DNA of 64,000 nt from an uncultured Chlamydiae bacterium (GTDB lineage Bacteria > Chlamydiota > Chlamydiia > Chlamydiales > Parachlamydiaceae). The position numbers and the translations under genes were made by a program. The stretch is from the NCBI GenBank assembly GCA_963754655.1, contig CAVWGN010000001.1:2688001-2752000 (forward strand), in the 5' to 3' direction. Each line of letters starts with the position of its first letter. Positions within the stretch are counted from its first letter, which is position 1. Positions 48,666-63,898 of the stretch are shown one piece after another. The notes beneath the pieces are model-generated. The model saw nothing but the letters and a program-made list of their open reading frames with translations, was not told where the DNA came from and did no database searches.

Positions 48666-51551
48666 ATGAATCATCTTGGTCAAATTCCCTCTAACTCAGT
48701 AACTCGTGATTCGACAAATCCGTGGTGCGAAAAATCTTCGAATGGAAGACGAAAACACAATCAAGATTCTTCATATAAGCATGATCAAAATGGAGAAGAA
48801 GAAACTCGGCTTGATTCCGAAGCTCGAGAAAAAACTAAGCTTTGTCAAAAAACGATCCATTTAAAGACTCCCGATATACAAGACAAAAATTCATCAGAAC
48901 ACCCTAACAAATCTTGGACAAAACAAGAGCAAGAATTAAGCAGAGGCAAAGACAAAACCAATAAAGCTTATCAAAGAATATATCCAACCGATTCCAACGT
49001 GGAAGAGAGGAGACCACTCAAAACAAAGGAGAGGGAAAGAGAGCAAGGGTCGTATTACGACAGGAGAGAGGGAGATGATTCTCGTGATAAAGACAATCAA
49101 TATCCATTCTCTAATCAGCGAAATTCCTCTACAAGAAGCAGGCAACCGGACGGGAACAAACACAATTCTTATCCTGTCAAATCTTCACTTATTTCGGTTG
49201 ATTTTCAATATCCCTCAAAAACCCCATCAGTGAATGCAAAAAGAGAAAGTTCAACAAATCAACGATCGGATCCTCGTTTGATTCCCTTCAATAAACAAAT
49301 AAATGCAGCTGCAAGAAATAATGACATTAAAAACTGCAAAAAAATTCTGACACAGATTGAGCAAGCTGGCTTAAGGCCGGATGCCTATTCTTACAATTCG
49401 ATTATTAACCTATTTGTTAGAAAACAAGATCAGACGAATGCTTACGCCGTCTTTGAAGAAATGAAAGCCAAGGAAGTACTTCCTAATGAGGTGACCTATA
49501 ATTCTTTAATCAATTTATTTGTGAAAAAAGAAGATGTGAAAAGAGCCTATGCCGTCTTTGAAGAAATGAAAGCCAATGGAGTGCTTCCCAATGTGGTGAC
49601 CTATACGTCTTTGATCAATTTATTTGTGAAAAAAGAAGATGTGGAAAGAGCCTATGCCGTCTTTAAAGAAATGAAAGCTAAGGGAGTGCTTCCCAATGAG
49701 GTGACCTATAATTCTTTGATCAATTTATTCGTGAAAAAAGAAGATGTGAAAGGAGCTTATGCCGTCTTTGAAGAAATGAAAGCCAATGGAGTGCTTCCCA
49801 ATGAGGTGACCTATACGTCTTTGATTAATTTATTTGTGAAAAAAGAAGATGTGACAGGAACTTACGCCGTCTTTGAAGAAATGCAAGCCAATGGAGTGCT
49901 TCCCAATGAGGTGACCTATAATTCTTTGATCAATTTATTTGTGAAAAAAGAAGATGTGACAGGAGCTTATGCCGTCTTCGAAGAAATGAAAGCCAAGGAA
50001 GTGCTTCCCGATAAGGTGACCTATAATTCTTTGATTAATTTATTTGTAAAAAAAGAAGATATAAAAGGAGCCTATGCCGTCTTTGAAGAAATGAAAGCCA
50101 AGGGAATACTTCCCAATGAGGTGACCTATACGTCTTTGATCAATTTATTTGTGAAAAAAGAAGATGTGACAGGAGCCTATGCCGTCTTTGAAGAAATGAA
50201 AGCCAAGGGAATACTTCCCGATGAGGTGACCTATACATCTTTGATCAATTTATTTGTGAAACAAGAAGATGTGAAAGGAGCTTATGCCGTCTTTGAAGAA
50301 ATGAAAGCTAAGGGAGTGCTTCCCAATGAGGTGACCTATAATTCTTTGATCAATTTATTTGTGAAAAAAGAAGATGTGAAAGGAGCTTATGCCGTCTTTG
50401 AAGAAATGAAAGCTAATAGAGTGCCTCCTGATGAGGTGACCTATAATTCTTTGAGCAATTTATTTGTGAAAAAAGAAGATGTGAAAAGAGCTTACGCCGT
50501 CTTTGAAAAAATGAAAGCCAACGGAGTGCTTCCCGATGAGGTGACCTATAATTCTTTAATCAATTTATTTGTGAAAAAAGAAGATGTGAAAGGAGCTTAC
50601 GCCGTCTTTGAAGAAATGAAAGCCAACGGAGTGCTTCCCGATGAGGTGACCTATAATTTTTTAATCAATTTATTTGTGAAAAAAGAAAATGTAAAAGGAG
50701 CTTACGCCGTCTTTGAAGAAATGAAAGCCAAGGGAGTGCTTCCCGATGAGGTGACCTATACGTCTTTGATCAATTTGTTTGTGAAAAAAGAAGATGTAAA
50801 GGGAGCTTACGCCGTCTTTGAAGAAATGAAAGCCAAGGGAATACTTCCCGATGAGGTGACCTATACGTCTTTGATCAATTTGTTTGTGAAAAAAGAAGAT
50901 GAGACAGGAGCTTACACCGTCTTTGAAGAAATGAAAGCCAAGGGAGTGCTTCCCGATGAGGTGACCTATACATCTTTGATCAATTTATTTGAGAAAAAAG
51001 AAGATGTGACAGGAGCTTACACCGTCTTTGAAGAAATGAAAGCCAAGGGAGTGCTTCCCAATGTGGTGACCTATACATCTTTGATCAATTTATTTGTGAA
51101 AAAAGAAGATGTGAAAGAAGCTTATGCCGTCTTTGAAGAAATGAAAGCCAAGGGAGTGCTTCCCAATGAGGTGACCTATAATTCTTTAATTGATCTATTG
51201 GTTAAGCTGGATTGTCTAGAACAAGCCGAGGTTCTCTTTTCTTCAAAACTTTCAATTAAAAAGCACATGCGTCAAGGTTCTTTAGATCTTCATGGATTAT
51301 CACATGGTGCAGCTTTTGTCGCTTTATCCATTTTTATAAAGTCTCACTGGGAAAATGATTCATTCTTGTTAATTACTGGAAAAGGGCTTCATTCTCACAT
51401 TAAAGATCTTTATCAGATGAGAGACTTTATGATGGAAAAAATAAAGGAAAAAATTCCTCATGTAATATGCCAAGTTGACCCAGAGAATAAAGGAAGGCTG
51501 ATCATTAATCGCAAGAAATTATCAGATTTTAATCAAAATGCTACTTCTTAA
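48666..51551 (+). CDS. PPR-Smr protein 1 (18 PPR motifs + half motif + Smr domain)
   Basis: 35-aa repeats EVTY(N/T)SLINLFVKKEDVxGAYAVFEEMKAxGVLP(N/D) at 49278-51167; Smr motifs LDLHGL, ITGKGLHS, NKGRL. Confidence 0.93.
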   Translation: MNHLGQIPSNSVTRDSTNPWCEKSSNGRRKHNQDSSYKHDQNGEEETRLDSEAREKTKLCQKTIHLKTPDIQDKNSSEHPNKSWTKQEQELSRGKDKTNKAYQRIYPTDSNVEERRPLKTKEREREQGSYYDRREGDDSRDKDNQYPFSNQRNSSTRSRQPDGNKHNSYPVKSSLISVDFQYPSKTPSVNAKRESSTNQRSDPRLIPFNKQINAAARNNDIKNCKKILTQIEQAGLRPDAYSYNSIINLFVRKQDQTNAYAVFEEMKAKEVLPNEVTYNSLINLFVKKEDVKRAYAVFEEMKANGVLPNVVTYTSLINLFVKKEDVERAYAVFKEMKAKGVLPNEVTYNSLINLFVKKEDVKGAYAVFEEMKANGVLPNEVTYTSLINLFVKKEDVTGTYAVFEEMQANGVLPNEVTYNSLINLFVKKEDVTGAYAVFEEMKAKEVLPDKVTYNSLINLFVKKEDIKGAYAVFEEMKAKGILPNEVTYTSLINLFVKKEDVTGAYAVFEEMKAKGILPDEVTYTSLINLFVKQEDVKGAYAVFEEMKAKGVLPNEVTYNSLINLFVKKEDVKGAYAVFEEMKANRVPPDEVTYNSLSNLFVKKEDVKRAYAVFEKMKANGVLPDEVTYNSLINLFVKKEDVKGAYAVFEEMKANGVLPDEVTYNFLINLFVKKENVKGAYAVFEEMKAKGVLPDEVTYTSLINLFVKKEDVKGAYAVFEEMKAKGILPDEVTYTSLINLFVKKEDETGAYTVFEEMKAKGVLPDEVTYTSLINLFEKKEDVTGAYTVFEEMKAKGVLPNVVTYTSLINLFVKKEDVKEAYAVFEEMKAKGVLPNEVTYNSLIDLLVKLDCLEQAEVLFSSKLSIKKHMRQGSLDLHGLSHGAAFVALSIFIKSHWENDSFLLITGKGLHSHIKDLYQMRDFMMEKIKEKIPHVICQVDPENKGRLIINRKKLSDFNQNATS

Positions 51552-63898: not shown

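Follow-up and report, generated by a model that had tools for sequence, protein, structure and literature searches.

The window analysed here is a stretch of 64,000 nucleotides (C1:2688001-2752000) of the 3.12-Mb contig C1 of a Parachlamydiaceae member, an amoeba-associated bacterium with a genome of 3.16 Mb in two contigs. It contains the first part of a cluster of genes for PPR-Smr proteins, which combine a tract of pentatricopeptide repeat (PPR) motifs with a C-terminal Smr domain. The cluster spans C1:2736639 to about 2772000, extending about 20 kb past the window end. Six of its genes are full-length, namely A, C, D, E (795 aa), F (866 aa), and G (898 aa, opposite strand), and the open reading frame (ORF) of each encodes the PPR tract and the Smr domain in one polypeptide. 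The remaining copies are H, interrupted by an insertion sequence (IS), the pseudogene B, and at least two further wrecks, giving about 10 tandem copies overall. A protein search of the whole genome with paralogue C produced 31 matches, and all 145 matches to the PPR family PF13041 are confined to three loci, the cluster and two distant paralogues, X and Y.

Paralogue A is intact and is located on the plus strand at 48666..51551 (ORF 48645/48666-51551; positions without a prefix are those of the window). It was identified by its ORF, the Pfam family PPR_2 (E = 1.2e-241), and the motif table, and consists of a polar N-terminus (48666-49277), 18 PPR motifs (49278-51167), and a cap motif with the Smr domain (51168-51548; 19.3 bits with the Pfam Smr model, which is sub-threshold). 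The start of A at 48666 is fixed by a conserved upstream region (48476..48665, plus strand), an AT-rich promoter-like block ending with the Shine-Dalgarno sequence AAAGGTGG about 8 nt before the ATG of MNHLGQ. The block, about 190 bp long, precedes A, B, C, D, E, and F; the alignment of these six regions has a mean column identity of 73%, and their last ~130 bp contain a long run of invariant columns.

Two more intact paralogues lie in the window, both on the plus strand. Paralogue C (57978..60866; ORF 57966/57978-60866), supported by the ORF, Pfam, the motif table, and AlphaFold models, has a polar N-terminus at 57978-58592, 18 PPR motifs at 58593-60482, and the cap with Smr at 60483-60863, where LDLHG starts at 60597. 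Paralogue D (61112..63898), supported by the ORF, PPR_2 (E = 3.2e-226), and the motif table, has a polar N-terminus at 61112-61729, 17 motifs at 61730-63514, and the cap with Smr at 63515-63895. Paralogue B (51793..54574, plus strand; ORFs 51793-54099 and 54041-54574) is a pseudogene, delineated by tblastn with A, which gave high-scoring segments in three frames. Its reading frame shifts at least five times; two of the breaks are in the N-terminal region, where ~52125-52349 is out of frame, others surround one motif at ~53400-53550, and the break near 54060 precedes the last motifs and the Smr domain. An earlier note on this DNA, made from the sequence alone, had described four paralogues with a common plan; the architecture is present in all four, but with B broken only three of them are intact.

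The PPR tracts and their predicted base code

Tandem Repeats Finder detected four arrays in the window, each with a period of 105 bp and 0% indels. They comprise 16.6 copies with 92% matches in A (49440-51187), 15.9 copies with 86% matches in B (52535-54210), 17.0 copies with 87% matches in C (58726-60514), and 15.9 copies with 89% matches in D (61863-63534). Segmentation of the proteins in a fixed 35-residue register yielded 18, 18, and 17 motifs of 35 aa in A, C, and D, respectively, plus a shortened cap motif; motifs 1 and 2 are divergent, while the others are close copies of each other. The PPR_2 model (PF13041) scored 732-781 bits with A, C, and D against a cut-off of 30 (E = 1e-226 to 1e-241; 17-18 stretches), and PF01535, PF12854, and PF13812 were likewise far above their cut-offs. 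The 17-18 motifs of exactly 35 aa, of which the first two diverge, had been reported in the earlier note, and the tandem repeat period, the register segmentation, and the PPR_2 stretches all agree with this count. PF13041 was found in none of 14 control prokaryote genomes.

The AlphaFold model of a 302-aa part of C (motifs 14-18, cap, and Smr; 59958-60863), built with a 26-row alignment, had a mean predicted local distance difference test score (pLDDT) of 95.1 and a predicted template modelling score (pTM) of 0.88. It showed two helices per motif, forming a predicted solenoid. In Foldseek its best matches were the designer and consensus PPRs 5orm, 5orq, 5i9g, 5i9h, 5i9f, and 6een (E = 5e-14 to 2e-12, 32%-36% identity), of which 5orm, 5orq, 5i9g, and 6een are bound to RNA or single-stranded DNA (ssDNA). 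Maize PPR10 ranked behind them (E = 1e-9, 23% identity). Judged by profile matches and the predicted fold, the arrays are genuine P-class PPR tracts. Natural P-class PPRs are RNA binders, and they bind in parallel, the protein running from N to C along the RNA from 5' to 3'.

Base recognition was predicted from residues 5 and 35 of each motif, position 5 lying after the conserved Tyr and position 35 after the conserved Pro in the usual register. Among 88 core motifs (the third motif onward in seven proteins), the pairs at 5/35 were TN (26), NN (25), TD (18), ND (15), TT (2), NT (1), and SN (1). According to the code reported by Shen et al. (2016, PMC4837458), ND specifies U, TD specifies G, TN and SN specify A, and NN specifies U or C; the meaning of the pair is therefore validated for 85 of the 88 core motifs. 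The pairs used cover all four bases, although the pyrimidines are resolved only in part, and the strict C code NS was absent from the 88 core motifs.

With Y denoting the NN code, the predicted RNA is U Y Y A Y A U Y G A U U U U G G A A for A, U A Y A ? ? Y Y U A Y A A A U G G A for C, and U G Y U U Y G Y U Y U G A A A A G for D. For the paralogues outside the window the strings are UUYYYYAAYAYYU (E), UGGGAAGGAYYGGYG (F), and UUYANGAAYYYGUGAU (G), with N for an unknown pair. The decoded strings of the six long paralogues are all different, and the predicted targets are 13-18 nt long. The proposal that a shared scaffold carries different specificity residues is thus upheld at the level of 5/35 pairs and of the strings decoded from them, the targets being predicted.

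The C-terminal domain and the N-terminus

LDLHG and ITGKG were found in all seven intact cluster copies, and the ITGKGLHS and NKGRL motifs are also present. Residues that do not vary among 26 aligned family members are the H of LDxH, the two G of TGxG, the H after them, and N.G. Liu et al. (2013, PMC3858433) define subfamily-2 Smr domains by LDxH close to the domain start and by TGxG, and not HGxG, in the middle.

A HMMER search with the last 101 residues against 1.84 billion representative sequences found 72 proteins at E <= 0.001; 35 of the 40 of them that were scanned also matched PPR families of Pfam. Ten of these Smr-like relatives were checked and were metagenomic singletons, one labelled as a metagenome-assembled genome (MAG) of Verrucomicrobia and one as "pentatricopeptide repeat protein". 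A family profile of 29 short members matched, among solved chains, plant pTAC2 best (8w9z_E, E = 3.6e-10), followed by PAP2 chains (7e-9 and 1e-7) and the Smr domain of human N4BP2 (2vkc, 3.4e-5; 2d9i, 2.5e-4; 3fau, 2.4e-3). Of these 29 members, 18 were matched by the Pfam Smr model itself at E <= 0.1, the best of them at 4.7e-4.

The AlphaFold model of the cap and Smr part of C (60474-60863; pLDDT 91.9) has the beta-alpha-beta-alpha-beta-beta topology of the Smr fold. Foldseek aligned it with the Smr domains of PAP2/pTAC2, B3BP/N4BP2, MutS2, and YdaL (E = 8.7e-4 to 0.16, probability 0.89-1.00). In structural comparison 2zqe (root-mean-square deviation 1.8 A over 74 residues) and 4och both reached 11.0, followed by 9epc_G at 10.3 (121 residues aligned, cap included), 3fau at 9.3, 3qd7 at 8.3, and 8r55_z at 8.0. 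The structure prediction called for in the earlier note thus gave a PPR solenoid and an Smr fold. Relying on motifs, family profile, and modelled fold, we accept the C-terminal domain as an Smr domain of the eukaryotic type (subfamily 2), as first read from LDLHGL, ITGKGLHS, and NKGRL, although the Pfam cut-off was missed.

The mean ratio of nonsynonymous to synonymous substitution rates (dN/dS) was 0.31 in the Smr region and 0.72 in the N-terminus (15 paralogue pairs each), so the Smr domain is kept by purifying selection. In the plant protein SOT1, as described by Zhang and Lu (2019, PMC6662315), specificity comes from the PPR tract, both RNA and DNA are cut by the SMR domain, RNA cleavage depends critically on TGxG, and the protein could be re-aimed.

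The first ~205 residues are of a different nature: 73%-81% of them are S, N, Q, K, E, R, D, P, G, or T, with 33-40 K and R. No hydrophobic segment was found in this N-terminus (the maximum Kyte-Doolittle mean over 19 residues was <= 0.43) and therefore it has no Sec signal. Its description as a disordered region of about 200 aa fits this polar composition with its 73%-81% of disorder-promoting residues, and composition is the basis of that description. The genome contains one gene for the type III export gate FHIPEP/SctV.

Repeat exchange, genomic context, and distribution in the phylum

Repeats of one gene are 74%-83% identical at the protein level and about 88% at the DNA level. They had been likened to designer PPRs or to the repeats of transcription activator-like effectors (TALEs) in their uniformity; they are far more uniform than those of most relatives, but less so than TALE repeats. 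Position entropy was highest at 18 (2.00), 31 (1.66), 30 (1.46), 33 (1.22), 35 (1.15), 17 (1.10), and 5 (1.08), and nonsynonymous diversity per codon decreased in the order 33, 31, 18, 5, 30, 35. Position 5 is occupied by N, T, and one S, and position 35 by N, D, and three T.

We further compared near-identical units, defined by at least 93% DNA identity outside the two code codons. In the 190 such pairs, which are not independent of each other, positions 35 and 5 differed most often, accounting for 88 and 85 of 763 amino acid differences (23% at 2 of 35 sites), and a code position differed in 136 pairs. At a threshold of 95%, 38 pairs remained, with 13 and 11 of 103 differences at positions 35 and 5. 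Asn at position 5 is always encoded by AAT (41/41), and Thr by ACA, ACG, or ACC. Because two base changes separate AAT from most Thr codons (ACA/ACG), the N-type and T-type units represent distinct lineages that have been moved around. Toggling of position 5 by a single base change was rejected for the same two-base distance.

For 53 of the 88 units, the most similar unit at the DNA level belongs to another gene; units of the same gene share 0.883 identity on average, and units of different genes 0.870. Units at corresponding positions of different genes are not orthologous, and no two of the 88 units are identical. Assembly collapse of the repeats was also rejected, no identical pair being found among the 105-bp units compared. 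Adjacent near-identical units are D4/D5, D6/D8, and C7/C8. The picture suggested by these comparisons is one of a shared pool of repeat types exchanged among paralogues, a TALE-like mode of evolution in an unrelated fold. The TALE-like claim of the earlier note holds as far as repeat exchange and the frequent switching of code positions in near-identical pairs are concerned, but variation is not confined to these positions; it spreads past them, and "TALE-like" is therefore used here as an analogy only.

Beyond D, the cluster continues at 63899..64000 (plus strand) and outside the window, as revealed by the own-genome protein search and an ORF scan. These located E at C1:2752114-2754498, F at C1:2754730-2757327, a broken copy at C1:2758697-2760235, G at C1:2764725-2767418 (minus strand), and cluster fragments at C1:2770657-2771999. 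Paralogue H (C1:2767645-2768862, minus strand) is interrupted by an IS607-type element (C1:2768837-2770601, minus strand), recognised by Pfam matches of the neighbouring genes and encoding a serine resolvase and a TnpB / Cas12f-like OrfB, which separates the first ~110 codons from the rest. Genes for IS110-type and DDE transposases were also found by Pfam between the copies (L020 8492-9529 and 10407-11534, where L020 16837 corresponds to C1:2768837).

The G+C content of the cluster (0.33-0.39) is near that of the rest of the window. On its left flank Pfam recognised genes for a LysR-type regulator, a major facilitator superfamily (MFS) transporter, and release factor 2, whose best named relatives are from a Parachlamydiaceae MAG (84% identity) and Candidatus Protochlamydia amoebophila (81%). 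Beyond the cluster are genes for a SWIM-finger protein, an EamA transporter, and an IpgD-family protein. The latter (687 aa; C1:2776576-2778639, plus strand; PF05925, E = 4e-28) is encoded about 5 kb past the cluster; the IpgD family comprises injected inositol phosphatase effectors of enterobacteria.

Two ORFs lie between B and C. The 213-aa ORF 55507-56148 (plus strand) encodes one hydrophobic block of ~38 residues (approximately residues 38-75) and has no Pfam or PADLOC match; the block presumably recalls the bilobed domain of chlamydial inclusion-membrane (Inc) proteins. The 187-aa ORF 56597-57160 (minus strand) has no family match, overlaps a 118-aa ORF of the other strand, and may be a remnant of a mobile element.

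The distant paralogue X (C1:1739766-1741427, minus strand) is a 669-aa frame with about 12 PPR motifs of the cluster type but no Smr domain, in place of which a ~13-aa acidic repeat, present five times, and a coiled-coil-like tail are found at the C-terminus. Paralogue Y (C1:2586980-2588344) has an Smr-like end, LDCHG...VTGIG.

With the last 165 residues as a query, two of 40 related genomes matched, none of the three of the same genus among them. The profile search across Chlamydiota that had been suggested for this family revealed that it is not unique to this genome: profile A1 matched 29 of 399 other sampled genomes of the phylum at E <= 1e-5. Including the own genome, the matches come from 23 of 212 genera in many families, several of them on contigs longer than 2 Mb. 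Up to nine candidates were scored per genome, so that copy numbers are floors; in other chlamydial genomes they are usually at least 1-3, sometimes in tandem (three in G301:C52 and three in G087). The three tandem genes of G301:C52:35500-44500 (612-678 aa) have divergent helical repeats and Smr-like ends, IDSH..TGKG, and this locus shows that tandem duplication of apparent PPR-Smr family members recurs in the phylum. The sole profile match of the same genus (genome G003) is a different helical-repeat protein without LDxH or TGxG.

In relatives whose motifs could be segmented, mean pairwise motif identity was 0.43-0.69, and in the metagenomic protein P0018 it reached 0.82, compared to 0.74-0.83 in A-G. 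Because of the 29/399 spread and the less uniform relatives, the PPR-Smr architecture appears as an old, patchy chlamydial family, and the large homogenised multi-target expansion appears particular to this species among the sampled genomes.

Other searches added little. A word-indexed search with the C-terminal region gave 323 candidates, none at E <= 0.001 and no relative of near length, and a single-protein search of the genome contig collection found no relative. A search for longer proteins with profile A1 returned only the own paralogue H and one other protein. The plasmid collection contained one record, Rahnella aquatilis CP036489.1, which matched only the PPR part (37% of the query). 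The region concerned (38692-38874) encodes a hypothetical protein with 44% identity over 61 residues (E = 3e-7), a stray bacterial PPR motif on the plasmid of a soil enterobacterium.

Possible function and relation to known systems

In the mechanism we propose, the cluster would be a lineage-specific, recently expanded PPR-Smr family of an amoeba-associated Parachlamydiaceae bacterium. Each protein would act as a modular reader of single-stranded RNA (ssRNA), one 35-aa motif addressing one base via residues 5 and 35 (TN for A, TD for G, ND for U, NN for U or C), with the subfamily-2 Smr domain, its LDxH and TGxG kept, at the end facing the 3' side of the bound RNA. The paralogues would have the N-terminus, scaffold, and Smr domain in common and differ in their 13-18-nt targets, and new specificities would arise by duplication and exchange of repeat units between copies (birth-and-death evolution). 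The site of action would most likely be outside the bacterium, on host-cell RNAs after type III export.

Several features point to such an outside target, namely the lack of own-genome and rRNA sites beyond shuffles, the patchy family, the pseudogenes and IS elements in the cluster, the absence of a Sec-type segment, the presence of SctV, and the IpgD-family gene ~5 kb past the cluster. We regard it as very probable that these are genuine PPR-Smr proteins and that their predicted specificities differ from paralogue to paralogue. The architecture, modelled folds, code residues, selection on Smr, and repeat shuffling were established here, and we infer RNA binding, cleavage, export, and the RNAs that would be hit; for the whole chain, from modular ssRNA readers with Smr domains and repeat exchange to action on non-self RNA of the host cell, we see slightly better than even chances. 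A still more specific version, in which injected "RNA-TALEN-like" effectors (by analogy with TALE nucleases) would each be delivered into the amoeba and cut one host, organellar, or co-infecting-virus RNA at a site given by the order of its repeats, and would be re-aimed over evolutionary time by shuffling four repeat types between copies, is a tentative possibility.

Some observations weigh against the proposed mechanism. As to targets, NN cannot tell U from C, and the divergence of motifs 1-2 and of the cap makes the target ends uncertain. The code positions are not the only variable ones: positions 18, 31, 30, and 33 exceed 35 and 5 in entropy, codons 33, 31, and 18 have the highest nonsynonymous diversity, above the code codons, and some code strings may be by-products of unit duplication, as in D4/D5, D6/D8, and C7/C8. 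With Pfam Smr (PF01713) the domain scored 17.0-19.3 bits against a gathering threshold of 25.7, model positions 1-47 or 1-49 of 77 being aligned, and the own-genome search for the Smr family returned nothing over the cut-off. Plant pTAC2 is, according to the titles of the structures, a structural subunit of the plastid polymerase complex, and Bacillus subtilis MutS2 is reported to dock on collided ribosomes by its SMR domain without mRNA cleavage (PMC10897456). The N-terminus has no Pfam match and nothing usable in the protein atlas; for type III export of the PPR-Smr proteins, the cues, among them the Inc-like ORF between B and C, fit weakly.

These points on Smr domains lead to the main rival, an unlikely one, according to which the proteins bind RNA sequence-specifically without cutting it. 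Smr would then be a docking module for ribosomes or a polymerase complex, and the proteins would block, stabilise, or tether RNAs like most plant P-class PPRs. The recruitment of MutS2 to collided ribosomes is a precedent for this, as is pTAC2/PAP2, the plastid RNA polymerase subunit that was our best profile and Foldseek match. Against it, LDxH and TGxG are intact and invariant in the chlamydial family, whereas pTAC2 is described as diverged at TGxG (Liu et al. 2013, PMC3858433), and TGxG is the motif reported as critical for RNA cleavage by SOT1 (PMC6662315).

We consider it improbable that the proteins process the bacterium's own transcripts in a housekeeping or regulatory role, as SOT1 does in chloroplast rRNA maturation. 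Plant PPR-SMR proteins are reported to act on bacterial-type organellar RNAs (PMC6662315), and the conserved promoter region and Shine-Dalgarno sequence of each gene would suit such a role. The genome was scanned on both strands with NN read as C or T, unknown pairs as N, and 20 shuffled strings as a control. No perfect site was found for five of the six long strings, and the degenerate 13-nt string of E occurred perfectly 75 times, compared with a mean of 65.5 for its shuffles. The numbers of near matches mostly stayed inside the range of the 20 shuffles, except that those of D at 2 and 3 mismatches exceeded the shuffle maximum. In the 16S-23S operon, scanned on its sense strand, the predicted strings did not match better than 200 shuffles (0.21-0.99 of the shuffles were at least as good). 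We see no sign of a target inside the bacterium itself in the genome and rRNA operon. A role in processing own transcripts is also at odds with the absence of the family from three other species of the genus in the search with a protein query, with the lack of catalytic motifs in the sole same-genus profile match, and with the decay of several cluster copies.

Another alternative is an arsenal for defence or competition, directed at RNAs of viruses (giant or RNA viruses) or rival symbionts in the host cell. The cluster shares with typical conflict systems a rapidly diversifying specificity, birth-and-death turnover, and an IS-rich setting; but no PADLOC-DB model matched A, C, the Smr part, or the two ORFs between B and C at E <= 0.01, and manipulation of the host accounts for the same features equally well, and this reading appears distinctly improbable.

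Even less likely, in our estimate, is that the repeats read ssDNA and Smr nicks DNA in the host nucleus or an organelle. In favour of this, a designed PPR on ssDNA (5orq) ranks with the top structural matches, K and R are abundant in the N-terminus (33-40 in ~205 aa), and the Smr domains of B3BP, MutS2, and YdaL are reported to nick DNA (PMC3858433, PMC6662315). The code residues, on the other hand, were validated for RNA (PMC4837458). RNA is also the ligand of natural P-class PPRs.

Finally, host DNA misjoined into the bacterial assembly might be suspected, since PPR proteins are overwhelmingly eukaryotic and PF13041 was missing from the control prokaryote genomes, and the earlier note had voiced this concern about a supposed contig end. 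Position 63898 is far from the end of the 3.12-Mb contig, in which the cluster, continuing to ~2772000, lies at about 2.74 Mb. Its mid-contig position, the bacterial genes on both sides, and the similar G+C content exclude eukaryotic contamination for practical purposes; uninterrupted ORFs with Shine-Dalgarno sequences, bacterial IS elements inside the cluster, and the relatives found in 29 of the 399 other genomes sampled, several of which lie on contigs of more than 2 Mb, also speak against it, leaving it a negligible probability.

Among known systems, the plant PPR-SMR proteins SOT1/PPR53, GUN1, SVR7/ATP4, and pTAC2/PAP2 likewise combine a P-class PPR tract with a subfamily-2 Smr domain behind it at the C-terminus. 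LDxH and TGxG are reported in SOT1 and GUN1 (PMC3858433, PMC6662315), as found in the chlamydial family, and the combination of PPR specificity with RNA cutting by Smr in SOT1 is the working mode that we propose for the chlamydial proteins. Unlike the plant proteins, these are encoded by a bacterium and have no organelle transit peptide but a polar N-terminus of ~205 aa without a known relative, and they form a cluster of about 10 tandem copies with turnover, while plants have single conserved orthologues. Plant PPR motifs are also divergent, in contrast to the near-identical motifs (74%-83%) of the cluster.

Bacterial precedents exist. Two PPR proteins were reported in Legionella longbeachae, at a time when 12 bacterial PPR proteins were counted (Cazalet et al. 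2010, PMC2824747), and PPR-SMR sequences in two L. longbeachae strains are mentioned as the one bacterial exception (Liu et al. 2013, PMC3858433). The L. longbeachae proteins Llo1404 and Llo2643 and the Ralstonia type III effector RipL are, as here, eukaryote-like PPR proteins in eukaryote-associated bacteria, and they are seen as horizontally acquired and as candidate or proven injected effectors (PMC2824747, PMC3858433, PMC10654456). They differ from the present cluster in comprising one or two genes per genome, and the accounts cited, as far as they cover these proteins, do not report tandem expansion, uniform repeats, or code switching. No description of PPR proteins encoded by chlamydiae was found in open-access papers and bioRxiv, a search that could miss work in subscription journals. 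The statement that no such system had been described in chlamydiae is to this extent supported, but bacterial PPR-SMR proteins as such were known from L. longbeachae (PMC3858433). The kind is thus already known, and what is new here is its bacterial chlamydial, tandemly expanded, designer-like form.

The closest solved structures to the chlamydial model are designer PPRs (dPPR and cPPR; 5i9f-h, 6een, 5orm/5orq, 4wsl), with 32%-44% identity. In these, near-identical 35-aa scaffolds leave the choice of base essentially to residues 5 and 35 alone, and the code pairs ND, TD, TN, NN, and SN are common to them and the chlamydial motifs (PMC4837458). The chlamydial proteins, in contrast, are natural; their scaffold varies also at positions 1, 17-19, 22, 28, and 30-33, and NS is unused in the 88 core motifs. 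Xanthomonas TAL effectors are comparable by analogy only, having tandem near-identical repeats, two residues per base, differing repeat orders, unit shuffling, and a host-associated bacterium as the carrier. The motifs of the cluster are PPRs and not 34-aa TALE repeats, the PPR fold is unrelated to theirs, the predicted ligand is RNA and not double-stranded DNA, a nuclease-type domain stands in place of an activation domain, chlamydial variation is not confined to two specificity residues, and secretion is putative. The Smr-domain RNA endonucleases Escherichia coli SmrB and yeast Cue2, which serve ribosome rescue, are recruited by collided ribosomes and not, as proposed for the chlamydial proteins, by a sequence-reading repeat tract. 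Bacterial Smr rescue nucleases are described as being of the HGxG type (Liu et al. 2013, PMC3858433).

PPR proteins have been treated as eukaryotic organelle factors and bacterial examples as rare curiosities. Against this background the cluster stands out by its ~10 copies, its designer-like repeats, the almost exclusive use of four code pairs, and the fusion to a SOT1-type domain, and it makes explicit testable predictions in the form of six different RNA targets of 13-18 nt. If the Smr domain cuts, the proteins would represent a natural modular PPR-nuclease pair, and screening of SMR domains of various organisms has been called for in the plant field (PMC6662315). If the proteins are exported, they would form a new class of effectors reading host RNA sequence, in a phylum whose effectors mostly lack a known function. 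Should the injected-effector reading be true, this would be the first natural programmable protein RNA endonuclease system in host-microbe conflict and would offer a compact scaffold-plus-nuclease for RNA targeting. Two wider questions are also touched by the family, namely where PPR-SMR proteins originated and how genes move between protists and their symbionts.

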